In this document: in pieces, positions 381-12,733 of the stretch | How positions within the stretch are numbered: position 1 is the first letter of the stretch | How the letters are laid out: each line of letters starts with the position of its first letter | Assembly (NCBI GenBank): GCA_045226015.1 | Contig: JBGVBY010000021.1 | Location: 17,485 to 81,484, forward strand | DNA from: Bacilli bacterium | GTDB taxonomy: Bacteria > Bacillota_I > Bacilli_A > RFN20 > CAG-826 | DNA: 64,000 nt | Direction: 5' to 3' | Translations under genes and position numbers: made by a program | The notes under the pieces: generated by a model | What the model was told of the DNA's origin: nothing | The model's database searches: none | What the model saw: the letters and a program-made list of their open reading frames with translations, nothing else

Positions 381-983
381 CTATCTTAATAACATTTCCA
401 TAATGACTTCACTATGGGGACATATGAATCTCTTATATCCGATGTGAACTCTATTAAACGCTAAACCTTTAATCATACTGAGTATGGCAATTGCTAACTC
501 CATAGTTGTGTAGTCGTTAATATCTCCTTCTCTTTTACCTCTTTCAATAAGATCCTCCACCATCGCAAATATCTGCGTATGTCCTTTTTCATTCTTTTTA
601 ATAATTGGAAGACTCTTTTGTAAGTGGATGTTTAAAAGAAGATATAGTTCTTTCACTCTTTCATCATTCGGCGACTTAATTACTTTTAACGTAGTGTCTA
701 ATAAATCGTGAATTACAAATATTGCCTTTTGATCAAAGTTAACGTTTTCAATAATTCGTCTAGTGCTAGGATAGACAATTTGATTGAGAACCGCTTCGTA
801 AAGCTCTTCTTTTGAACGGAAATAGTGATATAAAAGTCCATGACTACATTTTGCGTCTTTGGTTACTTCATCAAGACTAAAAGCGTTATATCCTTTCATA
901 ACAAAAAGATTAAGTGCGCTTCTTAAAATCGTGCTCATTCTTTCTTGTCTAATTTGTTCAAATTGTTCTTTTGTCTTAGGCAT
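381..983 (-). CDS. TetR/AcrR family transcriptional regulator
   Basis: 200 aa. N-terminal HTH: ILRSALNLFVMKGYNAFSLDEVTKDAKCSHGLLYHYFRSKEELY (TetR_N signature). Immediately upstream of, and co-oriented with, the ABC exporter. Confidence 0.85.
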   Translation of the reverse strand: MPKTKEQFEQIRQERMSTILRSALNLFVMKGYNAFSLDEVTKDAKCSHGLLYHYFRSKEELYEAVLNQIVYPSTRRIIENVNFDQKAIFVIHDLLDTTLKVIKSPNDERVKELYLLLNIHLQKSLPIIKKNEKGHTQIFAMVEDLIERGKREGDINDYTTMELAIAILSMIKGLAFNRVHIGYKRFICPHSEVIMEMLLR

Positions 984-997
984 TTGTTATCCTTTTC

Positions 998-1015
998 ATT
1001 GACGAATCAGTCAAT
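998..1015. promoter_or_regulatory. Perfect inverted repeat ATTGAC-N6-GTCAAT in the tetR 5' region; candidate TetR operator
   Basis: ATTGACgaatcaGTCAAT lies 15 bp upstream of the tetR start, in the divergent intergenic region shared with the lipoprotein gene. Confidence 0.45.
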
Positions 1016-1167
1016 ATAAACGCAAGATAACTATACTATTCAATAAATTGTTTTTCAATTTGTTTTGTCAGTTTTGTTTTATTCAAAACGTATAATTTCT
1101 TTATTTTCATCCTCAATATTTGAAATATTGTGAGTAACAATATACTATTAATACAGAGGATTCAGAT

Positions 1168-4100
1168 ATGAGACACAAGATTATAGGTACATTTTTAGTC
1201 GCGTCGGCCTTGGTTTTTGCTAGCTGTTCGATTGGCAAAGATACAGGCGGCAACACACCTACTCCTAGTACAGAAGTTCCTGTTACTGGAGTTATGATTA
1301 CACCTAAAAATGTCACGATGAAAGTTGGAGAAACCCAAAACTTTATTGCAACCGTTTCTCCAGATGACGCTACAAATAAAGGTGTTGTTTGGTCTATAAG
1401 CGATGCTACCAAAGGAAGCATTACAGCCGAAGGCAAGTTCACTGCTTTAGCAGAAGGAAATTGTACAGTTATTGTAAGCACTAAAGACGGTGGCCATATT
1501 GATACAAGTAATGTCACTATTAATCCTCAAGATGCGCCTGTAACTTTATCTGAAATCAGATTATCCGGAGACTATAAAACTTCTTTCCATTCTGGAGAAG
1601 AATTTACCGCGTCTGGTTTAATTGTTACCGCTTATTATACAAATGGAGACTACGAACAAGTATTTAGATACTCAGTAAGTACTCCTTCTACCACATTGAA
1701 TGATGGTGAAACATCAAGAACAGAAACTGTCACTGTTAGTTATACAGAAGATGGGATAACTGTTAAAAGAACATACGATATCACCATTACAGAAAAAATC
1801 GCTACTAATATCAGAGTATTTGGTGATTATCAATCTGAATTTGAGGCTGGAGAAGAATTCAATCATAACGGAGTCAAATTACTCGCCACTTATTCAGATG
1901 GAACAACTGGAGAAGTCACTCCAACTTCTTTCTCTACCCCAAATATGAATCAATTAGGTCCTCAAGGAGTTAGTGTTTATTATTATAACGGTGAAGAAAC
2001 ATTGCAAGCCACATACACAATTACAATTTACGCTCCTCAGGCAAGCGAAATCATTGGTATTAGACTTGACGGAAATTATCAAACCACATTCTTTGTGGGT
2101 GATAGATTCAATAATGCCGGATTGAATGTCTACGCTATATATGATGATGGATCTGAATTATTATGGAATTTAGGTTATTCAATAACTGATCCAGATATGA
2201 ACACTGCTGGCACAGTAAAAATAACTGTTACCATCACTTACGAAGGACAAAAATTCAGTGCTAGTTACACAATTACAATTTATCCAAAAGAAACTGGCGA
2301 TTCTATCTATGACTTAAACTGTGAAATCCCATATCAATCAGGTGAATATGACATCAAAGGTACTGTCACCTGTACGTGGTATGATTCCTATGGAAATTAC
2401 AACTTCTATATGCAAAATACCGATAGCAATAACCAAACCGGTGGTGTTTATGTTTATAGATCACAAAGTATAGTTGAAGAGGGTTCTTATATCGAAATTA
2501 AAGGAAATAAAGCAGATTATACCTTCTATAGAAACCAACCAGAAATCAATGGTAATAGCAATCCAACTGTCACAGTGTTAAAATCCGCGAGTGAAAACCC
2601 ATACGCAGTTACTCCAATTGAATATACATCAGATAACTTTATTGGATATGATGACACAACAAGTGAAAACTTCATAGACGGAGGATATAGAGGCCCTATT
2701 GAAGTTCTCATTAAAGAAGTTACAGTTCAATCAATAGCAGGTTCATACACAGCGTATGTCAAATTCAGTGACGGACAACTTGCCCCTATCTATTACGGCA
2801 GTAATGAGAGTACAGAAGTTAACGCTATTGGCACTTTGCTTACTAACTACATGAATAACGGAAAGAAATTAGATATTATCGGACATCCGCATTCATCTAC
2901 TTATTCAAATCTTTTACAGTTAGTAGTTAAACACGTTGGCTATATCACTGAAAGTGAAAATCAAGATGTTCCACCTGTGGATGAAAAAATCAAAACATTC
3001 ACTATCGGAGCATTTAACGACTTTCATGGACACATTGAGGAAGAAGCCAGCAGTCTAGGTTTGTCAAGAATGGGTAATCTCATTAGAACATTCACTGAAA
3101 AAGATAATACCCTAGTTCTCTCACAAGGTGATGATTGGCAAGGTTCAATTTATTCCAATTTTAACCATGGAAATTTAGTTAATGATGTTTACGCTCAAGC
3201 AAAATTATCAGCTAGAACTGTTGGCAACCATGATTTTGACTGGGGTGTTGAAAAACTTGAAATTAATACCGCTAGAAGTTATAACGGATATAGAACTCCA
3301 GTACTTGCCGCAAACGTATATGATTATGATCATGAAAATAGAGTTGTTGGCACAGTTCAACAATCAGATATTGGCATTCCTACTGTCACATATACTTTAG
3401 AAAATGGATTGAAAGTTGGTATTGTTGGTATTATTGGTAAATCTCAAATCACTTCTATTAATTCTAGTTTTGTGACTGACATTTGTTTTACAAATCACAT
3501 TAATGTCATTAAAGAAAAAGCAACAGAATTAAGAAATGGTGGCTGTGATGTAGTTATTGCCTCTTGCCATACAGGCCAAGAAGAAGTTTTAGGTAATAAC
3601 CTAAGTAACTACGTTGATTTAGTCTTATGTGGCCATTCTCACAAAGAGGAATCTACATCTGAAGATGGGCTCTTCTATTCACAATGTGGAGCCTATGGTA
3701 GAAACTTTGCTGATATTCATTTAGAATACAACACCGAAACCAAGGAAGTCGCACTATCATCATATAACTTAATTGGTGCTACTAACTATTATAGTTATGT
3801 TACTTATCACGACCCTGAAATCGATAACATTATTTCTGCGTACAATGATCAATGTGCTACTGAAGCAAACGAAGTTTTAGCGTTAAATGTTTCAGGTGAA
3901 TTTGCTGCTAAAGGAGAAGCGGGAAACATGGTTTGTAGAGCAATTTACGACCAATGTGTAGAAGAAGGGCACGGAGACGTTGTCTTAACTTATGTTAACC
4001 AAGCTAGAGCTGGACTATATAAATCACAATGGACATATGCGGATATATATGAATCGTTCCCATTTGATAACATCGTTTATATCGAAGAAGCTAAAGGTAG

Positions 4101-4413
4101 TGATATTCTTTACGAAGTAAGAGGCTGGGGTAATGCATATTTCAATCCTTCATTTGATTGCCAAATTAATCCAAATTCATACTATAAAATTGCCGTTATT
4201 GACTATGTTTTATTCCATGAAAACGACAATAGAATCTTCGACTACTTCAAAGCGTTTGATGGTCATCCAGACAATCAATTATCTATAAATTATAGATTAA
4301 TAATGAGAAAATGGCTGAAAGATAACCATTACAATACAGACAGCAGTAAAGTGCTAAGAAGTTCTGATTTCACAGGTAACGACTACGATAGAAGTAGACT
4401 CACTCAAATCTAA
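1168..4413 (+). CDS. Large surface lipoprotein: Big_2 domain + four Ig-like repeats + OB-like domain + 5'-nucleotidase/metallophosphoesterase (UshA/CpdB-like)
   Basis: Lipoprotein signal MRHKIIGTFLVASALVFASC|S. Big_2-like segment VTGVMITPKNVTMKVGETQNF...GNCTVIV. Four ~85-aa repeats (IRLSGDYKTSFHSGEEF.., IRVFGDYQSEFEAGEEF.., IRLDGNYQTTFFVGDRF..). C-terminal calcineurin-like phosphoesterase motifs GNHDFDWG and CGHSH, followed by a 5'-nucleotidase C-terminal domain. Confidence 0.7.
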   Translation: MRHKIIGTFLVASALVFASCSIGKDTGGNTPTPSTEVPVTGVMITPKNVTMKVGETQNFIATVSPDDATNKGVVWSISDATKGSITAEGKFTALAEGNCTVIVSTKDGGHIDTSNVTINPQDAPVTLSEIRLSGDYKTSFHSGEEFTASGLIVTAYYTNGDYEQVFRYSVSTPSTTLNDGETSRTETVTVSYTEDGITVKRTYDITITEKIATNIRVFGDYQSEFEAGEEFNHNGVKLLATYSDGTTGEVTPTSFSTPNMNQLGPQGVSVYYYNGEETLQATYTITIYAPQASEIIGIRLDGNYQTTFFVGDRFNNAGLNVYAIYDDGSELLWNLGYSITDPDMNTAGTVKITVTITYEGQKFSASYTITIYPKETGDSIYDLNCEIPYQSGEYDIKGTVTCTWYDSYGNYNFYMQNTDSNNQTGGVYVYRSQSIVEEGSYIEIKGNKADYTFYRNQPEINGNSNPTVTVLKSASENPYAVTPIEYTSDNFIGYDDTTSENFIDGGYRGPIEVLIKEVTVQSIAGSYTAYVKFSDGQLAPIYYGSNESTEVNAIGTLLTNYMNNGKKLDIIGHPHSSTYSNLLQLVVKHVGYITESENQDVPPVDEKIKTFTIGAFNDFHGHIEEEASSLGLSRMGNLIRTFTEKDNTLVLSQGDDWQGSIYSNFNHGNLVNDVYAQAKLSARTVGNHDFDWGVEKLEINTARSYNGYRTPVLAANVYDYDHENRVVGTVQQSDIGIPTVTYTLENGLKVGIVGIIGKSQITSINSSFVTDICFTNHINVIKEKATELRNGGCDVVIASCHTGQEEVLGNNLSNYVDLVLCGHSHKEESTSEDGLFYSQCGAYGRNFADIHLEYNTETKEVALSSYNLIGATNYYSYVTYHDPEIDNIISAYNDQCATEANEVLALNVSGEFAAKGEAGNMVCRAIYDQCVEEGHGDVVLTYVNQARAGLYKSQWTYADIYESFPFDNIVYIEEAKGSDILYEVRGWGNAYFNPSFDCQINPNSYYKIAVIDYVLFHENDNRIFDYFKAFDGHPDNQLSINYRLIMRKWLKDNHYNTDSSKVLRSSDFTGNDYDRSRLTQI

Positions 4414-4424
4414 GAGGTAACGAC

Positions 4425-5705
4425 ATGAAAAACTTTGTATTAATTTCTCCAAACTTTCCAGAAACATATTGGCAATTCGCTAGAGCACTTAGAAACGTTG
4501 GCTTTAGAGTGCTCGGTGTTGGTGACGCCCAATACAGTGAACTTAAACAAGAACTCAAAGATTCTTTACACGAATACTATCGCGTAAACAACCTCGATAA
4601 TTTCGACGAAGAAAAAGAAGCGGTGGGTTATTTTGAAAGAAAATATGGACATATTGATTTCTTAGAAAGTAATAATGAATACTGGCTTAGAAAAGATTCA
4701 ATTTTAAGAGACCTCTTTTCAATTAATACAGGATTAAAATCATCGGAATTAGACACTTATCAACGTAAATCTTTGATGAAAGAAAGATTCCAAAAAGCAG
4801 GAGTAAAAGTCGCTCCATATATTCTCGTTAGCGATAAAGAAAGCTTGTTAAAGTTCGCTAACGATCACGGCTTCCCACTTTTTGTTAAACCTGATATTGG
4901 AGTTGGAGCCGAAGAAAGCTTTAAATTAAAAAATATTGAGGAATTAGAGGACTTTTTCGCGAAAAAACACGAAAATTATCAATATATTTGTGAGACATTT
5001 GTGTCTGGTGATATCGTCACTTTTGATGGCATCGCGGATGAAAATAGTGAGGTCGTATTTATGGCTTCATTAGAGTGCCCACCATCAATTAGTGACATTC
5101 TCCACGAAGGAAGTGAGATGTTTTATTACTCCAATCCATTCATTCCAAAAGAGTTTGAAGAAATTGGAAGAAAAACAGTCAAAGCATTCGAACTTAAAAA
5201 TAGATGTTTCCACATCGAATTCTTTAGAGTGAATAAAGATATGCCTGGATTTGCTAAGGTTGGAGATATTGTTGGATTAGAGGTTAATATTAGAACACCT
5301 GGCGGATACACTCCTGATATGCATAACTTCGCTAATTCAGTGAACATGTATCAACTATATGCGAACACAGTTGCGGGATTTAATCCACGTCCAGTTTGTG
5401 ATCCAAAATTCTACTGTGCAACCGCTAGTAGAAGAGATGGCGTTCAATACTTCTATAGCGATGAAGAAGTTTTAAGAACATACGAAAAAGAAATATGCGG
5501 TAACGGAAGATATCCAAAAGTTTTAGCAGGTGTTATGGGTGATCGTTTCTTTATGGCTAAATTCACCAACCTCAAGGACTTGGAAGTGTTTAAAGAATAC
5601 GCAAATAGAAGAAACGTACCTGGCGGTTCTAAAAATAGCGGTTCAATGTTCAACAAAGAAGGAAGTAATGAACCAATTTGCGATACACATATCGATGGAG
5701 CGTAA
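4425..5705 (+). CDS. ATP-grasp domain protein (carboxylate-amine ligase superfamily), function unknown
   Basis: 426 aa. ATP-grasp core is recognisable: KSLMKERFQKAGVKVAPYILV..HGFPLFVKPDIGVGAEESFKL..ETFVSGDIVTFDG... No specific family could be assigned. Confidence 0.55.
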   Translation: MKNFVLISPNFPETYWQFARALRNVGFRVLGVGDAQYSELKQELKDSLHEYYRVNNLDNFDEEKEAVGYFERKYGHIDFLESNNEYWLRKDSILRDLFSINTGLKSSELDTYQRKSLMKERFQKAGVKVAPYILVSDKESLLKFANDHGFPLFVKPDIGVGAEESFKLKNIEELEDFFAKKHENYQYICETFVSGDIVTFDGIADENSEVVFMASLECPPSISDILHEGSEMFYYSNPFIPKEFEEIGRKTVKAFELKNRCFHIEFFRVNKDMPGFAKVGDIVGLEVNIRTPGGYTPDMHNFANSVNMYQLYANTVAGFNPRPVCDPKFYCATASRRDGVQYFYSDEEVLRTYEKEICGNGRYPKVLAGVMGDRFFMAKFTNLKDLEVFKEYANRRNVPGGSKNSGSMFNKEGSNEPICDTHIDGA

Positions 5706-5707
5706 TC

Positions 5708-6214
5708 ATGTCTAATTTGTTATATCTACCAGAAGATTGGGACAACATCTTTAAAGCAGAAAGGGACAATCTTAGATTTGTTCTCCCAGAATTTAAATTC
5801 AATATTGAACATATCGGAGCAACATCAATTAATAATTGTCGTTCTTTTAGAAATGTCGATATTTTAATATCGCTATCTCATTTTAATGACATCTATACTG
5901 CAGCGATGTTACTTAATTCTCGTGGATATAAAATGCTTAACGCGCAATGTAGAAGTGACTGTGCGTTGCTCATTAAACGCAGCAAATATAAAAAGATAGG
6001 TGTCACTATTCGAATCGTTGAATACGGCGGAGATTTCTATAACCGCTGCAAGGCTTTCCAAGTGGTGTTAAGAGAATCTTATGATCGCACTCAAATGTAT
6101 AACAATTTTAGAGAAAAGCTATTTGCAAAATACCCAAAGAACATCAAGAGATATAACGAAGTTAAATACGACTATATCAATTCCCAATTAGATTACTATT
6201 TTAAATTTCAATAA
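5708..6214 (+). CDS. GrpB (UPF0157) family nucleotidyltransferase-fold protein
   Basis: ATG at 5708 lies 2 nt after the upstream stop. NIEHIGATSINNCRSFRNVDILISL resembles the GrpB HIGSTSVPG..IDI motif. The ORF-track start at 5678 is probably too far upstream. Confidence 0.5.
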   Translation: MSNLLYLPEDWDNIFKAERDNLRFVLPEFKFNIEHIGATSINNCRSFRNVDILISLSHFNDIYTAAMLLNSRGYKMLNAQCRSDCALLIKRSKYKKIGVTIRIVEYGGDFYNRCKAFQVVLRESYDRTQMYNNFREKLFAKYPKNIKRYNEVKYDYINSQLDYYFKFQ

Positions 6215-6215
6215 C

Positions 6216-7100
6216 ATGAACGGAATTATCATCACAAACCAAGACATTGGTCATAACGCTTATAAAATAAAACGATTCACTGAGGAAGCTAAACTTCTCG
6301 GTGTTTCTTTAATACATCTCATTAACGATGGAACTTTAGGCATTATTAAAGATAACAACATCATTATTAATCTTCCTAAATGTGATTTTGTCATTTATCT
6401 AGATAAAGACATATATTTAGCAAGACTATTAGAACAAAATGGTTATCGACTATTCAATAAGGCTGATTTCATCAAAATGTGTGATGATAAAAACCTCACA
6501 GACATCATGTGCGCGAACAAAGGTATTAAAATGCCTAAGACAATATGTGGCCCTTTGTTTTATTCTCCTGAATTAAAAGAAGAAAACCTAAAATTCTTGG
6601 ATTTTGTAGAACAAGAATTAGGATATCCTTTAGTGTTTAAGAAAGTTTATGGATCTCTTGGCCTAGGTATATTTTTAGTCAATAACAAGCAAGAACTCAT
6701 CTCTTTATATAAGAAACACTGTCGTGAACCACTACAATTCCAAGAATATATTGCCACAAGTTACGGCAAATCATTAAGGGTTCTTATAATCAATCAAAAA
6801 GTCATTGGAGCGTTTCAAAGATATAACACAAGCGACTTTAGAAGTAACTTCGGAGAAACCGCTACTAGTAAAGAATATAAACTTGAAGGCAAGTATTTAG
6901 AAATCGCTAATAAAATCGCCGAAGCATTTAAGGTTGAATACGCTGGTATTGATTTACTTTTTGGAGAAAACGATGAGCCAGTATTATGTGAAATAAATTC
7001 CAATGCCTTCTTTGAAGAATTTGAGAAAACTACTAAAATCAATGTTGCTAAACTCTTCATTGAAATGGTGATAGAAAAGATTAACAATGAACAAAAATAA
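6216..7100 (+). CDS. RimK-type ATP-grasp ligase (alpha-L-glutamate ligase family)
   Basis: 294 aa. LVFKKVYGSLGLGIFLVNNKQEL...KSLRVLIINQKVIGAFQRYNTSDFRSNFGETATSK...AGIDLLFGENDEPVLCEINSNA is typical of the RimK / glutathione-synthetase-like ATP-grasp fold. Confidence 0.65.
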   Translation: MNGIIITNQDIGHNAYKIKRFTEEAKLLGVSLIHLINDGTLGIIKDNNIIINLPKCDFVIYLDKDIYLARLLEQNGYRLFNKADFIKMCDDKNLTDIMCANKGIKMPKTICGPLFYSPELKEENLKFLDFVEQELGYPLVFKKVYGSLGLGIFLVNNKQELISLYKKHCREPLQFQEYIATSYGKSLRVLIINQKVIGAFQRYNTSDFRSNFGETATSKEYKLEGKYLEIANKIAEAFKVEYAGIDLLFGENDEPVLCEINSNAFFEEFEKTTKINVAKLFIEMVIEKINNEQK

Positions 7101-8010
7101 GAAAAGATTCGAACATCATTCAAAAGACTATTCCGGAATCAAAGAATACCCAGTGAATAAAGATTCTGAACTTTTAGAATTTCTTTTGGAAACCTTAAAG
7201 GGACAGTCACGTAATTCTGTTAAATCTCTTTTAACCAACCATCGTGTTTCTATTGATGGAGCGCCTATTTCTCAATATAACTTCAAGCTCTATAAAGGAG
7301 ATGTTGTTATTATCTCTAAGACTCCAATTCACAAGAAAACACGCAGCAACCTACCTATAATCTATGAAAATAACGAGATGATTGTTATCAATAAACCAAG
7401 TGGTCTATTATCTATCGCTAGTGATAAAGAAAAAGGATCAACTGCTTATAGGATGCTAACTGATTACGTTCAGCAAAAAGACAAACATAATCGTATATTT
7501 GTTGTCCATAGACTTGATGAAGACACTTCTGGAGTCCTAATGGTAGCTAAAAATCCAGAACTACAAAAGGCTCTTCAAGATAATTGGAACGATTTAGTTA
7601 AATCTCGTGGGTACTATGCGATTGTTGACGGCATCATGAAAGAAAAAAGTGGCACGATTAAGTCTTACTTAAAGAAGAATAGCCAAAACATGATGTATTC
7701 ATCTAAAAAAGCTGGTGATGGACAGTTCTCTGTAACGCATTACAAAGTTTTAATGGAAAATGGAAACTATTCACTTTTAGATGTTCATATTGATTCAGGT
7801 AGAAAAAATCAAATTCGTGTCCATTTAGGTGATTTAGGTCATAACGTTATCGGAGATGACAAATACGGTAATCCTACTAACCCTATTAAGAGATTAGGCT
7901 TGCATGCCTATGAACTTGTTTTAACTCACCCACTCACAAATAAAGAACTCAAATTTGTCGCGCCTACACCGAAAGAATTTAAAACTCTTTTCCCAAATTT
8001 CAATAAATAA
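7087..8010 (+). CDS. RluA-family 23S rRNA pseudouridine synthase (RluD/RluC-like) with N-terminal S4 domain
   Basis: HRLDEDTSGVLMVAKN catalytic motif and the C-terminal RLGLHAYELVLTHPLT. S4-like N-terminus HRVSIDGAPISQYNFKLYKGDVVII. Confidence 0.85.
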   Translation: MNKNKKRFEHHSKDYSGIKEYPVNKDSELLEFLLETLKGQSRNSVKSLLTNHRVSIDGAPISQYNFKLYKGDVVIISKTPIHKKTRSNLPIIYENNEMIVINKPSGLLSIASDKEKGSTAYRMLTDYVQQKDKHNRIFVVHRLDEDTSGVLMVAKNPELQKALQDNWNDLVKSRGYYAIVDGIMKEKSGTIKSYLKKNSQNMMYSSKKAGDGQFSVTHYKVLMENGNYSLLDVHIDSGRKNQIRVHLGDLGHNVIGDDKYGNPTNPIKRLGLHAYELVLTHPLTNKELKFVAPTPKEFKTLFPNFNK

Positions 8011-8082
8011 GCTTTTATCTATTCAAAAATAATTTTTATTTTTCGTTTATAAACTTTTTTGTATGCGTATAATTTTAAGCAT

Positions 8083-9672
8083 ATGAGAAACAAATATTTA
8101 AAGTCGTTTATTAATAGCGCAATTTCGATCATTCCAATCATTGCGATTATTTACGCTTTATCTTTTGTTTTGTCCGCTAGTGGAGAACAATCTTTAACAA
8201 ACACTGAATATGTGATGTTAGGCATTGGTGCCTTCATCATGATTAGCGGATTATCATTCTTCCAAATAGGTGCTCAAAGTAGCTTGATCAAAATTGGCGA
8301 ATACATGGGTGCTTCTTTGTCTAAACAAAAGAAACTCATCATCGTTATCATATTTGCCTTCCTATTAGGCACTCTTATCACATGTGCTGAACCAAGCATC
8401 ATAATCATGTCTAAGCAAGTTAATATGAACTCAGTTCTTTTAATTGCATCTATTGCTTGTGGAGTTGGCGTTTTTGTTATCTTAGGAATTATTAGAATTG
8501 TTACCCAAAAATCATTAAACGTGTGGTTTCTTACGTTCTATTTGATTGTTTTTATGCTTATCTGCATCCTTCAAGCAGATGTTAATAATCATCCATATCT
8601 ACCATTCATTTTTGACGCTGGTGGAATTACTACTGGAAGTGCTACTGTTCCATTTATTTTAGCCTTAGGTGCAGGTGTTGCTATGACTAGAGGTGGAGAT
8701 AAAACTAAAGACAGTTCTTTCGGTCTAGTTGGATTAGCGTCTATTGGCCCTATTATCACAATGGTGATTTTGATCTTGGCTAAACCTGGTGGATTCTCAG
8801 CTTACAACGTCACTGAATTACCCGCTATTAATCCTGACTATGTTGATTGGAACTATATCGGTAACCAATTTGTAAGAACCTTGTTGCCTCAAGAAGGTGG
8901 TTCTTTAGGATCTATTATTGAAGTTTTATTAGCGTTAGCACCAATCTTAATTATTTTCTTCATCTATGAAGCAATCTTTATCAAGTTATCTCTTAAGCGT
9001 ATCTTTTTCTTATTAAACGGTACATTTGTAACATTCTTTGGATTAACGATGTTCCTTTGTGCAGTTGGTTCCACAATGTCTCCAACCGGATTAAAGATGG
9101 GCGAACTTATTTCTAATTGGCAAGATTGGATTATCATCATTCTCGCCTTTGGAATTGGTTGTGTCACTATTCTATGTGAACCAGCAGTACATGTTCTTAC
9201 CACTCAAATAGAAGAAATTAGTAACGGCGAGCTTAAAAAGAGAACCGTATTATTCTCATTATCAATAGGTGTAGGCGCTGCAATATGTCTATCCATGATT
9301 AGAATGCTTTATGGCTTCTCAATTATGTATTACATCGTTCCTGGATATTTAATATCGCTTGTTATGATGTTTATTGTTCCTGATTTATACACTGCGGTTG
9401 CTTTTGACTCTGGTGGAACAGCTTCTGGACCAATGGCGGTTTCCTTTGTCCTTCCAATGATTATTGGTATATTCAGTGTTAGAACTGGCCAAACATCAAG
9501 TGTAGACTTCTATGAATCTGCTTTTGGAGTTGTCGCAATGGTAGCTATGACACCAATTCTGTCTATTCAAATACTTGGTACAACAAGTAAAATTAAGAAC
9601 ATCTACGCTTTACGTGTTATTCGTTCACAAGTTCATGATGGACGTAATGATGAAATCATTCATTTTTGTTAA
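8083..9672 (+). CDS. Polytopic membrane protein with internal two-fold repeat (DUF1538-like putative transporter)
   Basis: About 12 predicted TM segments. Two homologous halves (DAGGITTGSATVPFILALGAGVA / DSGGTASGPMAVSFVLPMIIGI). Followed by two PII-like genes. Confidence 0.5.
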   Translation: MRNKYLKSFINSAISIIPIIAIIYALSFVLSASGEQSLTNTEYVMLGIGAFIMISGLSFFQIGAQSSLIKIGEYMGASLSKQKKLIIVIIFAFLLGTLITCAEPSIIIMSKQVNMNSVLLIASIACGVGVFVILGIIRIVTQKSLNVWFLTFYLIVFMLICILQADVNNHPYLPFIFDAGGITTGSATVPFILALGAGVAMTRGGDKTKDSSFGLVGLASIGPIITMVILILAKPGGFSAYNVTELPAINPDYVDWNYIGNQFVRTLLPQEGGSLGSIIEVLLALAPILIIFFIYEAIFIKLSLKRIFFLLNGTFVTFFGLTMFLCAVGSTMSPTGLKMGELISNWQDWIIIILAFGIGCVTILCEPAVHVLTTQIEEISNGELKKRTVLFSLSIGVGAAICLSMIRMLYGFSIMYYIVPGYLISLVMMFIVPDLYTAVAFDSGGTASGPMAVSFVLPMIIGIFSVRTGQTSSVDFYESAFGVVAMVAMTPILSIQILGTTSKIKNIYALRVIRSQVHDGRNDEIIHFC

Positions 9673-9681
9673 GGTATAAAT

Positions 9682-10080
9682 ATGGCAAAGAAAGAAACAA
9701 AAAAGAACAATTCTAAACAAGCTCGTTTTGAAGATCGTGAAGACCTCAGAAAGTTATACCTTTACACGATTATTGTTCCTCGTGGACACGGCGATAACAT
9801 CATCCGTATCTTAAAAACGAATAAGAGCAGCGCTCAATTCTTTCAAATGGGAGAAGGCACTGCCAGTAGTAAAATCAGAGAACTTTTAGACATTGAAGAT
9901 ACAAAGAAAGATATCGTTTATTCTGTTGTCAGTGGTGAAGCAGTCAAATATATCAAAAAAGAATTAGATGCTTATTTCTTAGCGAGTAGAAGAAATAGAG
10001 GTATTGCATATACCATTCCATTAACCGCTTTAGTGGGGGTTAAAATGTACAAATTCTTCACTCAAACAGTTAGGGGGTAA
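9682..10080 (+). CDS. PII-like (GlnB-superfamily) signalling protein, divergent, with basic N-terminal extension
   Basis: 132 aa. Core ~100 aa has a ferredoxin-like PII pattern (YTIIVPRGHGDNIIRIL...GIAYTIPLTALVG). Translationally coupled to the next gene. Confidence 0.45.
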   Translation: MAKKETKKNNSKQARFEDREDLRKLYLYTIIVPRGHGDNIIRILKTNKSSAQFFQMGEGTASSKIRELLDIEDTKKDIVYSVVSGEAVKYIKKELDAYFLASRRNRGIAYTIPLTALVGVKMYKFFTQTVRG

Positions 10081-10082
10081 TT

Positions 10083-10406
10083 ATGGCAGAAAAGAATATG
10101 AATCACGAAGTGATCGTGGTAATCGTTAACGAAGGCCATTCAGACAAAGTAATGGACGCTGCTAGAGAAGCAGGAGCAAGAGGTGGTACTATCATCCACG
10201 CTCGTGGAAGTGGTACAAAAGACATCGAGAAAAAATATGGGGTTGTGATTACTCCTCAAAAAGAAATGCTCTATATTTTAGTGAATGAAAAAATAAGAGA
10301 TGCAGTCATTTCTTCTATCAATAAATCAGTCGGTCTAGAGACTCCAGGACAAGGTATTGTTTTCTCTTTACCAGTGAGCAATATCTCTGGTTTAAAATTA
10401 GATTAA
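10083..10406 (+). CDS. PII-like (nitrogen-regulatory P-II family) protein
   Basis: 107 aa. EVIVVIVNEGHSDKVMDAAREAGARGGTIIHARGSG...GQGIVFSLPVSNISGLK follows the PII fold pattern (beta-alpha-beta with a T-loop region). Confidence 0.55.
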   Translation: MAEKNMNHEVIVVIVNEGHSDKVMDAAREAGARGGTIIHARGSGTKDIEKKYGVVITPQKEMLYILVNEKIRDAVISSINKSVGLETPGQGIVFSLPVSNISGLKLD

Positions 10407-10479
10407 ATAGGTTATTTATTACATTCGTTAAAAATACGAATATAATTAATAGTATAAAAATCCAAGGGGGATAATAATT

Positions 10480-10833
10480 ATGCCAGCAAAGAAACCAGTT
10501 AAGGCTAAACCAGCTCCAGCAAAGAAAGCTGCGGTTAAAAAAGCTGTCCCAGCAAAGAAACCAGCAGTTAAGAAAGCTGAACCTGCAAAGAAAGCTCCAG
10601 CAAAGAAACCTGCCAAAAAAGAAGAAGTTAGCTTCCGTACTTATCACTTAGCAAAAAGAGAAGATGGCAAATGGGCAGTTAAATACGCTGGAGGAGAAAA
10701 GGCTATCAAATTATTCGATACTCAAAAAGAGGCATTAGAATATTCTAAGAAGATGGCTAAAAACCAAGACGGCTCCGTTTTAGTTCATAACTCAAAAGGC
10801 GCGAACAAAGGCAGAATTGCTAAAAAGAGATAA
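10480..10833 (+). CDS. DUF2188 domain protein with histone-H1-like Lys/Ala/Pro-rich N-terminal repeat tail
   Basis: N-terminus: repeated PAKK/AVKKA units (PAKKPVKAKPAPAKKAAVKKAVPAKKPAVKKAEPAKKAPAKKPAKK), encoded by a tandem CCAGCAAAGAAA DNA repeat. C-terminus FRTYHLAKREDGKWAVKYAGGEKAIKLFDTQKEALEYSKKMAKNQDGSVLVH matches DUF2188. Confidence 0.7.
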   Translation: MPAKKPVKAKPAPAKKAAVKKAVPAKKPAVKKAEPAKKAPAKKPAKKEEVSFRTYHLAKREDGKWAVKYAGGEKAIKLFDTQKEALEYSKKMAKNQDGSVLVHNSKGANKGRIAKKR

Positions 10834-10849
10834 TCTCTTATACAGAAAA

Positions 10850-10884
10850 GAAAAAAGCGTTGGAATCAAAATCCAGCGCTTTTC
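10850..10884. terminator. Bidirectional rho-independent terminator between the DUF2188 gene (+) and typA (-)
   Basis: AAAAAAGCGTTGGAatcaaaaTCCAGCGCTTTT: 9-bp stem with one G-U pair, A-run upstream and T-run downstream. Confidence 0.7.
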
Positions 10885-10900
10885 TTATATGATAAATGAG

Positions 10901-12733
10901 TTATTCTGCTTCTTGTGCTCTTTTAACATGAGCCTCGTATTTCTTTCTTTCGGCAGTATTTAAGATCTTCTTTCTCATACGATATGTAGTAGGAGTAATC
11001 TCCACTAACTCGTCAGCGTTAATATAGTCAAGACACGCTTCTAAGGACATCTTACGTGGTGATTTAAGAACAACAGTGGTGTCTTTATTTGATGAACGAA
11101 CGTTGGTTAAGTTCTTCTTTTGAGTAACGTTAACCGCAAGATCAAAATCATAACGATGTTCACCAACAATCATACCTTCATACACTTCAGTACCTGGAAG
11201 AATAAACATGGTTCCGCGTTCTTCAGTGTGTTCAATCGCATAAGGTGTAGCTTGTCCTGCCTCAACAGACACAAGAACTCCAATATTTCTTTCTCCAATA
11301 GAAGAGGCGGTGATAGGACGATATTCTTTATACGTGTGAGATAAAATGCCATAACCCTTAGTTAAAGTCATGAAATTAGTCATATATCCTAATAAACCTC
11401 TACTAGGAATAACATAGTTAAGAATAGTGACTGTTTCTTTAGCGTCCATATTGATGAGTTCACCATTACGTTCTCCAATTGTGGTCATAATGTCACCCAC
11501 AAATTCATTAGGAACATCAATTAATAAATCTTCGTATGGTTCGCATTTAACTCCATCAATCTCTTTAATAATAACTTGAGGTTTACTAACTTCGAGTTCA
11601 AAGCCTTCTCTTCTCATGTTTTCAATTAAAATTGAAAGATGTAACTCACCTCTACCAGAAACAATCCAGCTTTCAGTGTTAATAATACGTTCAACCTTTA
11701 AAGCAACATCTTTTTGAGTTTCTCTAAACAATCTTTCTTCTATTTTTCTAGCAGTTAAAAGTTTTCCATCTCTTCCACTTAATGGAGAAGAGCTTGTTCC
11801 GAAAGTCATTTGCAAGGTTGGCTCATCTAATCTAATTAGTGGAAGAGGATCAACATGACCAAATTGACAGATAGTTTCTCCAACATTAATATCCGCTAAT
11901 CCAGCTACCGCAACGATATCACCAGCATGAGCCTCGTTAATTTCTAGTCTCTTTAATCCTTGGAAACCAAATAATTTAAGCACTCTAAAGTTACTAACTT
12001 CGCCATTTAAGCGCGATACCGACACGTTATCGTTAACTTTGATGGTTCCTCTTTTAATCGTTCCAATACCAATCCTTCCAACGAAATCGTTGTAATCAAG
12101 TAAGGCAACTTGGAGTTGTAATGGAGAATCTTTATCCATACTTGGAGCTGGGATTTGATCTATGATGGTTTGTAAAACTGCATCCATTCCTTCTACTTGA
12201 GAAGCAGGATCACTTGAATATGATGATGTTCCTTTTAACGCAGAAGTAAATACGGTTTTGAAATCTAAGAATTCATCTGGAGCACCTAATTCAATAAACA
12301 AAGTAAGTACTTCGTCTAAAGTTTTCTCCACATCAATATTTGCTCTATCAACTTTATTGATAACAACAATTGGCTTAACATGAGCTTCTAACGCTTTCTT
12401 TAAAACGAATCTAGTTTGAGGCATTGTGCCTTCAAAAGCATCAACAAGTAATAAACAACCATCCACCATGTTCATAATACGTTCGACTTCTCCTCCAAAG
12501 TCAGCGTGACCTGGAGTGTCTAAAATATTGATCTTAGTGTCTTTATAAATGATGGAAGTAGTTTTTGCTAAGATAGTAATTCCTCTTTCACGTTCAATGT
12601 CATTTGAATCCATCGCACGATCAGATAATTCTTCATTAGCCCTAAATGTAGCAGATGATTTAAGAAGTTGGTCAACAAGTGTAGTCTTGCCGTGATCAAC
12701 GTGAGCGATAATTGCAATATTTCTTACATCCAT
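10901..12733 (-). CDS. typA: Translational GTPase TypA/BipA
   Basis: 610 aa. IRNIAIIAHVDHGKTTLVD G-domain. Overall EF-G-like architecture and BipA C-terminal domain. Confidence 0.95.
   Translation of the reverse strand: MDVRNIAIIAHVDHGKTTLVDQLLKSSATFRANEELSDRAMDSNDIERERGITILAKTTSIIYKDTKINILDTPGHADFGGEVERIMNMVDGCLLLVDAFEGTMPQTRFVLKKALEAHVKPIVVINKVDRANIDVEKTLDEVLTLFIELGAPDEFLDFKTVFTSALKGTSSYSSDPASQVEGMDAVLQTIIDQIPAPSMDKDSPLQLQVALLDYNDFVGRIGIGTIKRGTIKVNDNVSVSRLNGEVSNFRVLKLFGFQGLKRLEINEAHAGDIVAVAGLADINVGETICQFGHVDPLPLIRLDEPTLQMTFGTSSSPLSGRDGKLLTARKIEERLFRETQKDVALKVERIINTESWIVSGRGELHLSILIENMRREGFELEVSKPQVIIKEIDGVKCEPYEDLLIDVPNEFVGDIMTTIGERNGELINMDAKETVTILNYVIPSRGLLGYMTNFMTLTKGYGILSHTYKEYRPITASSIGERNIGVLVSVEAGQATPYAIEHTEERGTMFILPGTEVYEGMIVGEHRYDFDLAVNVTQKKNLTNVRSSNKDTTVVLKSPRKMSLEACLDYINADELVEITPTTYRMRKKILNTAERKKYEAHVKRAQEAE

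Follow-up and report, generated by a model that had tools for sequence, protein, structure and literature searches.

Do three tightly packed genes in the genome of an uncultured gut bacterium encode one peptide-ligating pathway, or do they share only a place in an operon? The question is raised by a stretch of 64,000 nucleotides (nt) from a Bacilli bacterium (assembly GCA_045226015.1, contig JBGVBY010000021.1, positions 17,485 to 81,484, forward strand), referred to below as the window. The genes encode an ATP-grasp enzyme of an unassigned family (here AG1), a GrpB/UPF0157 protein and a RimK-family ATP-grasp ligase. A first-pass annotation of the window read the trio as a possible peptide-ligation or post-translational tailing pathway, noted its tight spacing and saw no substrate gene nearby. 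We find that the constant unit is AG1 together with a small, highly conserved peptide, which is fused to the C-terminus of AG1 in the window and encoded by a separate small gene in related genomes, and that GrpB and RimK are optional neighbours. A peptide-related function is plausible, given this conserved peptide module attached to AG1; a single three-enzyme tailing pathway is only partly supported.

The peptide was recognized from the C-terminus of AG1. In two alignments of homologues, the enzyme ends in a variable segment and then an ICDxHIDGA sequence that hardly changes. Residues 400-426 of the window protein have predicted local distance difference test (pLDDT) values below 50 in the AlphaFold2 (AF2) model and are modelled as disordered. 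In related loci L004-L008, AG1 stops at 395-401 amino acids (aa), and the motif instead ends a separate open reading frame (ORF) of 43-50 aa that follows directly, with its own ATG at or overlapping the AG1 stop codon. The separate peptide of L004 is MDDELELLKRRRRRKKRFMTGEDIDMFNEREADERKKKEEPICDRHIDGA, and the junction there reads GAGGAG-N9-TAATG, that is, a ribosome-binding site and a stop/start overlap. The separate peptide gene of these sister clades is translationally coupled to AG1. The peptides are charged and about 45 residues long, with a consensus of a polybasic N-terminus, a TGEDIDMF-RERE block, a basic stretch and a nearly invariant [IV]-C-D-x-H-[IV]-D-G-A end that carries the free carboxyl terminus. 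Fused AG1 tails can be aligned to the free peptides, including remnants of the GED..MF.ERE pattern, and alignment with the separate peptides shows that the linker of the window protein keeps an MF-NKE remnant of the TGEDIDMF-RERE block. In 16 versions of the motif, fused or free, I, D, D, G and A never change, while C, H and I are conserved to at least 90%. The view that no substrate gene lies near the trio therefore holds for a separate ORF in the window, but a homologue of the small gene is present there as the C-terminal part of AG1 (5622-5705). No Pfam or NCBIfam model matched the small peptides, and a string search of the literature for the motif found no paper.

In metagenomes, the motif mostly accompanies AG1. 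A degenerate DNA pattern for the motif plus stop codon matched 73 metagenome contigs, with the motif fused to AG1 in 21 and at the end of a separate small ORF directly after AG1 in 43. The other nine comprise four contig ends without upstream sequence, four loci without AG1 and one short contig without a recognized neighbour (L151). None of the 73 matches placed the motif in a recognizably different genomic context. The search pattern left the TGEDIDMFREREQE block of the peptide free to vary, and there the first, second and third codon positions have nucleotide diversities of 0.097, 0.041 and 0.421, a dominance of the third position that indicates coding selection on the small ORF. In 12 loci reached through AG1, not through the motif, the motif codons carry synonymous variation, which shows selection at the protein level. 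In a neighbour-joining tree of AG1 the fused and split states interleave, so fusion or fission happened more than once, and repeated fusion and fission is a classic signature of two cooperating parts. Small ORFs downstream of AG1 in loci of other lineages (L009-L081) showed no conserved peptide.

Two simpler accounts of the motif were considered and rejected. The split ORFs are not sequencing frameshifts, as dozens of independent contigs have them, the frames differ, and every such ORF has an ATG and a ribosome-binding site of its own. The other account starts from the overlap of the motif with the signals of the next gene. The codons of the invariant Asp-Gly-Ala (GAT GGA GCG, from 5694) contain GGAG at 5697-5700, 7 nt (5701-5707) before the ATG of GrpB, and from the sequence the peptide end likely doubles as the ribosome-binding site of GrpB. 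Conservation of the motif merely as a Shine-Dalgarno sequence does not follow, since it is equally conserved where the next gene lies 80-200 nt away or is a different one; the synonymous variation in the motif codons also counters this idea.

AG1 itself is a catalytically complete ATP-grasp enzyme, as judged from its sequence. Against Pfam, it received a generic ATP-grasp call (PF02786, CPSase_L_D2, with 25.1 bits where the cutoff is 19.8), and none of the NCBIfam models scored above its cutoff. Together with this ATP-binding domain match, the conserved Lys and Glu/Glu-x-Asn ligands place it in the ATP-grasp superfamily, and in an alignment of 47 homologues K155, E190, H263, E265, E286, N288 and R290 are invariant. 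The best match in a profile search of the PDB was the L-amino-acid ligase RizA (4wd3, E=6.6e-14). A Foldseek search with the AF2 model (pLDDT 88) likewise ranked RizA first (E=1e-22), followed by BL00235 (3vot) and BacD/YwfE. On the predicted structure, AG1 is closest in fold to the L-amino-acid ligases, with template modelling (TM) scores of 0.63-0.69 at just 14-18% identity, and PurK, PurT and biotin carboxylase score nearly as well. The family is large, with 253 representatives (each one 50%-identity cluster) at E<=1e-30.

We next consider whether GrpB and RimK belong with this pair. A scan of a genome collection anchored on AG1 gave 80 loci, whose ORFs were screened with the proteins of the window; matches to GrpB and RimK came from the nearest relatives alone. 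The expectation that the trio would form a conserved cluster in relatives was borne out in part. The order AG1-GrpB-RimK-RluA recurs in genome loci L002 (AG1 identity 74%), L082 and L084 and in metagenome loci L095, L107, L112, L122, L128, L130, L143, L154 and L158, but the contiguous trio is confined to one clade of an uncultured rumen and gut Bacilli lineage, GrpB and RimK are patchy within the lineage, and other genes are inserted. In L003 (67%) an opposite-strand EF-G-like gene lies between GrpB and RimK. In L004 and L005 (54-55%) GrpB is absent, and DegV or DegV plus DUF1538-PII separates AG1 from RimK. L086 has RimK directly after AG1 and no GrpB, and in L085 a DegV gene, a transglutaminase-core gene, a Band7 gene and an unknown ORF lie between AG1 and RimK. 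RimK is absent from L008, where DegV adjoins rluA, and rluA also follows DegV in many split loci without RimK. RluA is thus the constant downstream anchor, and the slot between the peptide stop codon and rluA is variable, holding GrpB, DegV, RimK, transglutaminase/Band7 or DUF1538-PII. We conclude that, for the most part, the trio is a juxtaposition specific to the lineage, within a compact and syntenic operon.

These distributions make it very improbable that AG1, GrpB and RimK form one dedicated tailing pathway in which a peptide scaffold is modified by each in turn. The contiguous trio does recur from about 45% AG1 identity (L095, L130) to 100% (the window), but GrpB is adjacent in only 12 of 19 fused loci and in none of 34 adequately sampled split loci; it occurs in AG1 clade A, the fused-type clade that includes the window, and on a single short contig of the split type (L117). 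Found in most clades, RimK is present in each of the 10 fused-type loci extending as far as rluA and in 10 of the 22 such split loci, and the two AG1-less loci with enough sequence (L121, L132) both keep the peptide and RimK. Against this, AG1 and the peptide persist without RimK in a well-sampled split-type clade (C) and in L006 and L008. A precedent for the gene combination exists in fosfazinomycin assembly, which uses the scaffold peptide FzmZ with the ATP-grasp enzyme FzmF and the nucleotidyltransferase FzmU (PMC13622209). No protease or dedicated exporter is consistently linked to the loci studied here, however, and AG1 outside the lineage is found without GrpB or RimK. The near-restriction of GrpB to clade A, the loss of RimK in a clade and the insertion of unrelated genes all weaken the proposal of one joint pathway.

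GrpB is the fastest-diverging gene of the block, with identities of 31-54% where AG1 has 45-75%, RimK 65-79% and RluA 84-89%, a further point against a shared pathway. Its family assignment is secure (PF04229, 72.2 bits against a cutoff of 25.5), and it retains an invariant EHIGATS...SFRNVDIL core despite this divergence, with H35, G37, A38, T39, N49, V50 and D51 invariant among 20 orthologues. A profile match to PDB entry 2nrk (E=5.5e-5) agrees with the AF2 model (pLDDT 92.5), whose top structural matches are 2nrk (TM 0.74) and 6n39, followed by nucleotidyltransferases of the Pol-beta/Cid1 type. Pol-beta-type catalysis is marked by an hG[GS] motif, a [DE]x[DE] pair and a third acidic residue; GrpB instead has HIGATS ... 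NVDILIS, with a single Asp (D51) at the DxD position, and 2nrk likewise has a single Asp (IIDFLV). Nucleotidyl transfer by GrpB would therefore be a guess from the predicted fold. The gene always starts immediately after the stop codon of the peptide. A longer ORF from a TTG at 5678, which overlaps AG1, is less likely than the ATG start used here. We know of no reaction for the GrpB/UPF0157 family. The literature on GrpB gave no established function beyond a reported role in CoaE folding, which in Mycobacterium tuberculosis a GrpB-type domain is reported to aid (PMC2765170).

The RimK-family gene belongs to the alpha-L-glutamate ligase family, as indicated by PF08443 (E=1.8e-35) and TIGR00768 (162.5 bits against a cutoff of 143.4), but its sequence does not make it an orthologue of any characterized member. 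Scores are far short of the thresholds set for the E. coli RimK equivalog (NF007764, 72.3 against 331 bits), LysX/ArgX (TIGR02144, 108.4 against 275.6), MptN (89 against 350) and CofF (69 against 300). Graspetide models of the MvdC/MvdD type gave 16-17 bits against cutoffs of 425-475 for the RimK gene and no match for AG1, and the peptide, although it has Thr, Asp and Glu, shows no evidence of graspetide-type cross-linking. Potentially the gene could encode a ribosome-related modifier, a C-terminal glutamyl ligase of the S6 type that travels with RluA and is independent of AG1 and GrpB. The best PDB match is E. coli RimK (5zct, E=2e-17), the RimK-family model is passed, and rluA lies immediately after RimK in every RimK locus that reaches that far, with a 14-nt overlap in the window. 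We nevertheless consider this quite improbable, given the low score against the E. coli equivalog and the many loci that have rluA without RimK, so that the pair is not co-inherited. Furthermore, a search for rpsF, which would supply the S6 C-terminus, gave no match across the window and 159 loci.

The gene calls of the first-pass annotation stand: the three co-oriented ORFs, their assignment by Pfam and NCBIfam scores to an ATP-grasp enzyme without a named family, a GrpB protein and a RimK-type ligase, and the flanking lipoprotein nucleotidase and pseudouridine synthase are all as described (Table 1). The genes are genuine and under purifying selection, and they are probably co-transcribed. 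Gaps of 2 nt (AG1/GrpB) and 1 nt (GrpB/RimK) separate them, AG1 starts 11 nt after the end of the 5'-nucleotidase lipoprotein-like gene, and all lie in a co-directional array of about 10 genes (1168-10833) that continues past rluA with DUF1538, a 132-aa ORF, PII-like and DUF2188 genes. Spacing of this kind, however, is a property of the genome and not a mark of the trio, because short gaps are common throughout the window: same-strand adjacent pairs have a median gap of 9 nt, with gaps of at most 2 nt in 17 of 46 and at most 11 nt in 26 of 46. A promoter and terminator scan of positions 900-11000 found fewer promoter-like sites than in shuffled sequences and no terminator in any intergenic gap, and thus does not define the operon. 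Neither GC content nor GC content at third codon positions flags GrpB or RimK as foreign DNA, and PADLOC gave no anti-phage defence match for the trio or RluA at E<=0.001.

Table 1. Positions of the trio, its neighbours and related features; entries marked window use window coordinates, and the others use those of the numbered locus; rows without AG1 refer to the small peptide gene, and PF00756 rows to one or two esterase genes
Feature	Source	Positions	Strand	Remarks
AG1 (ATP-grasp)	Window	4425-5705	+	426 aa; intact ORF
AG1 catalytic core, residues 1-399	Window	4425-5621	+	ATP-grasp carboxylate-amine ligase, unnamed family
AG1 variable disordered linker, residues 400-417	Window	5622-5675	+	AF2 pLDDT and alignments
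AG1 C-terminal motif ICDTHIDGA and stop codon	Window	5676-5705	+	Conservation in fused and free versions
GrpB/UPF0157	Window	5708-6214	+	168 aa from ATG; PF04229
RimK-family ATP-grasp ligase (alpha-L-glutamate ligase type)	Window	6216-7100	+	294 aa; PF08443, TIGR00768
RluA-family pseudouridine synthase, S4-like N-terminus	Window	7087-8010	+	TIGR00005, 204 against a cutoff of 192.7
Lipoprotein-like Big_2/Big_3 and metallophosphatase/5'-nucleotidase protein	Window	1168-4413	+	Pfam matches
Motif site without AG1	L102	12682-12711
Motif site without AG1	L121	3997-4026
Motif site without AG1	L124	6181-6210
Motif site without AG1	L132	6548-6793	-	Native coordinates
PF00756 esterase	L010	9336-10875
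PF00756 esterase	L025	6207-7780
PF00756 esterase	L022	5685-7951
PF00756 esterases	L077	7156-7953 and 9237-9974
PF00756 esterase	L038	4191-4955
PF00756 esterase	L023	2944-3675
PF00756 esterase	L016	9175-9957

The head of the operon differs among relatives. Only in the window genome does the Big_2/Big_3 5'-nucleotidase gene lie between a divergent TetR gene and AG1; in L002, L003, L082 and L084 TetR adjoins AG1 directly. The lipoprotein gene looks like a recent insertion. Downstream of rluA, the genes for the DUF1538 membrane protein, the unannotated 132-aa ORF and the PII-like protein form a tightly packed triplet (8059-10406) that is conserved as a unit and, in relatives such as L004, relocates in one piece. 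The DUF2188 protein that follows (10480-10833) has a histone-H1-like N-terminal repeat rich in Ala, Lys and Pro (PAKKPVKAKPAPAKKAAVKKAVPAKKPAVKK...). Elsewhere in the window, a 777-nt intergenic gap holds a match to the orphan Rfam family cow-rumen-1 RNA (RF02946; 23217-23279, minus strand; 56.3 bits against a cutoff of 53.4), which fits a rumen origin.

Outside the lineage AG1 keeps different company. Neither GrpB nor RimK was found within about 8 kb of AG1 in 68 loci from other lineages, whose hosts include Clostridia, Fusobacterium, Bacteroidales, Desulfovibrionaceae and Acholeplasmatales. One or two genes for PF00756 putative esterases instead flank AG1 in 49 of 81 genome loci, spanning Bacillota, Fusobacteriota, Bacteroidota and Desulfobacterota. 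Gene order varies, with esterases upstream of AG1 in Clostridia, downstream in Fusobacterium, Alloprevotella, Mailhella and [Eubacterium] saphenum, and on both sides in a metagenome-assembled genome (MAG) of Bacteroidales. The pairing looks like a functional link that crosses phyla. In one fused representative (P0270, 642 aa), a Peptidase_S51 domain at residues 20-176 precedes an AG1 domain at residues 246-638; Peptidase_S51 is the dipeptidase E/cyanophycinase family. The flanking esterases and this fusion argue that the general partner of AG1 is a serine hydrolase and not GrpB or RimK, and the fusion hints at a small peptide or polyamide as the product of the family, degraded by a partner serine hydrolase.

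Several further features of AG1 loci were observed. AG1 proteins of the Faecalibacterium/Lawsonibacter type (L025, L048, L070, L072) have a different C-terminal extension, basic and rich in Lys, Thr and Pro. Tandem AG1 paralogues occur in an Erysipelotrichaceae MAG (L040, 9934-11124) and in Sharpea porci (L076, 9938-11173). An Rfam scan of the window and 17 AG1 loci for riboswitches and T-boxes found nothing upstream of AG1. Clostridiales-1 RNA (RF01699) is present in L049 (6977-7144, plus strand), between the two esterases of an esterase-esterase-AG1 cluster, and in L016 (5901-6064, plus strand), about 2 kb upstream of AG1; with two of the 17 scanned loci, the association is not consistent.

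How might AG1 and the peptide work together? We give an even chance to the reading that AG1 is a ligase with a substrate or partner peptide, and that GrpB and RimK are optional neighbours of this pair. ATP-grasp enzymes activate carboxylates as acyl-phosphates, and an enzyme of the L-amino-acid-ligase type would use ATP to form an acyl-phosphate on a carboxylate before joining an amine to it. In this lineage the carboxylate would most likely be the C-terminal Ala of AG1's own tethered or co-translated peptide, which would be extended or charged at its C-terminus. By analogy with characterized protein-directed ATP-grasp enzymes, which act on conserved C-termini of their partners (RimK on S6, LysX on LysW and tubulin-tyrosine ligase on tubulin), we regard ligation of an amine to the terminal Ala of AG1's own peptide as the simplest reading, at somewhat less than even probability. 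The main alternative role of the tail would be as a docking or regulatory partner of AG1. RimK, where present, would probably add alpha-linked glutamate or a similar residue to a C-terminal carboxylate, and its acceptor could be the peptide or its product or something unrelated, such as ribosomal protein S6. For GrpB, a nucleotidyltransferase fold without the canonical DxD, we propose no specific chemistry. RimK and GrpB may act on the same peptide terminus as AG1, a minority view given their patchy distribution. The broadest form of the proposal would be a new system for C-terminal peptide ligation in gut and rumen Bacilli, in which the Ala carboxylate is phosphorylated, an amine is attached, the peptide serves as a scaffold, a carrier or a handle like Pup or LysW, and GrpB and RimK tailor the same terminus; we consider this unlikely.

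A number of observations weigh against pairing AG1 with the peptide as ligase and substrate or partner. AF2 leaves the tail undocked on the AG1 core, a weak negative from an alignment of 47 sequences. The peptide ends in Gly-Ala and lacks the acidic end of RimK and LysX substrates, and in L007 the Cys of the motif is replaced by Ala. The peptide gene lies between FGGY and DegV, with no AG1 adjacent, in L102, L121, L124 and L132. This arrangement was checked directly in L132, and RimK-RluA still follow the peptide gene in L121 and L132. Retention of the peptide in these loci implies that some of its role is independent of a neighbouring AG1. Most members of the AG1 family in other lineages have no such peptide, so that the family would have started from a different substrate, probably a small molecule handled together with partner esterases or S51 peptidases. 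Finally, function and common descent cannot be told apart by conserved synteny in a single lineage.

In a rival account, AG1, GrpB and RimK are unrelated enzymes of a long housekeeping-type operon and the tail is a docking, localization or autoregulatory module or a small subunit, not a substrate. In favour of this account, tight spacing is found genome-wide, the block also holds RluA, DUF1538, PII-like, FGGY and DegV genes without an obvious common chemistry, and unrelated genes separate the trio members in relatives. AG1 works without a peptide in most lineages, the tail is undocked in the model, and the basic tails of the other AG1 clades (L025, L048, L070, L072) suggest a localization or binding role. 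Against it, the tail varies except for its very last residues, which hardly change and sit at the free C-terminus. Where a carboxylate-activating ligase has a partner with a conserved C-terminus, that terminus is usually the site of action, as in the known pairs named above. Retention of the peptide where AG1 is missing, in four loci, argues against a purely AG1-regulatory tail, and the invariable start of GrpB right after the peptide's stop codon also speaks against this account. We therefore regard the account by synteny as rather unlikely, and retain a ligase with a substrate or partner peptide as our working interpretation.

Comparison with known systems shows where this interpretation has precedents and where it departs from them. 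AG1 shares with the L-amino-acid ligases (RizA, 4wd3; BL00235, 3vot; BacD/YwfE, 3vmm), its best profile and fold matches, the three-domain ATP-grasp layout and the conserved Lys/Glu/Glu-x-Asn-x-Arg set. Those enzymes join free amino acids and have no conserved tail or partner peptide, identity to them is 14-18%, AG1 passes no curated model, and in genomes the AG1 family usually partners with PF00756 esterases. The pairs LysX/ArgX-LysW and RimK-S6 resemble the AG1 system in that an ATP-grasp ligase goes with a small protein that has a conserved C-terminus, in the known pairs the ligation site, and the RimK gene of the trio is in the same TIGR00768 family. LysW is a zinc-ribbon protein that ends in EGWGE, and S6 ends in Glu-Glu, whereas the peptide described here, highly charged and probably disordered, lacks a zinc ribbon (no Cys-x2-Cys pairs) and has Asp-Gly-Ala at its end. 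The ligase constantly paired with it is, moreover, of the AG1 and not the RimK type, and scores remain below the equivalog cutoffs.

Fused and separate arrangements of an enzyme and its peptide are known from borosin-type systems of peptides made by the ribosome and modified after translation (OphMA), where some lineages join the core peptide to the modifying enzyme and others encode it separately. The AG1-peptide pair is also either fused or split, with the peptide at the C-terminus of the enzyme. In borosins the enzyme is a methyltransferase, and variable cores are released by proteolysis; AG1 is an ATP-grasp ligase, with an end motif that barely varies and without a linked protease. A likeness in chemistry exists with scaffold-peptide pathways (PEARL; ammosamide, 3-thiaglutamate), in which the C-terminal carboxylate of a peptide is phosphorylated and then amidated (PMC11117183). 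The likeness proposed here is one of chemistry and gene types. Those pathways belong to actinomycete and pseudomonad clusters for secondary metabolites, which hold many tailoring enzymes, whereas the genes studied here lie among housekeeping genes of a gut bacterium with a reduced genome. GrpB shares the HIG[SA]TS ... [IV]D[IF]L signature, the Pfam model and the fold (TM 0.74) with GrpB/UPF0157 proteins such as Enterococcus faecalis 2nrk and the C-terminal domain of mycobacterial CoaE (6n39), but it is a free-standing protein without a CoaE fusion.

The pairing of AG1 with a fused or split peptide is the noteworthy feature of this locus, and it is apparently undescribed. As the trio is mostly lineage synteny, guilt by association says little about GrpB here. 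A ligase family that is widespread in gut bacteria has, in one lineage, a conserved and separable peptide partner. To our knowledge, ATP-grasp ligases that act on the C-termini of proteins or peptides are few, namely RimK, LysX, the tubulin-tyrosine ligases and PEARL relatives, and each of these opened new biology. The links of AG1 to esterases and to an S51 peptidase in other phyla provide a second, independent lead to the chemistry of the family.

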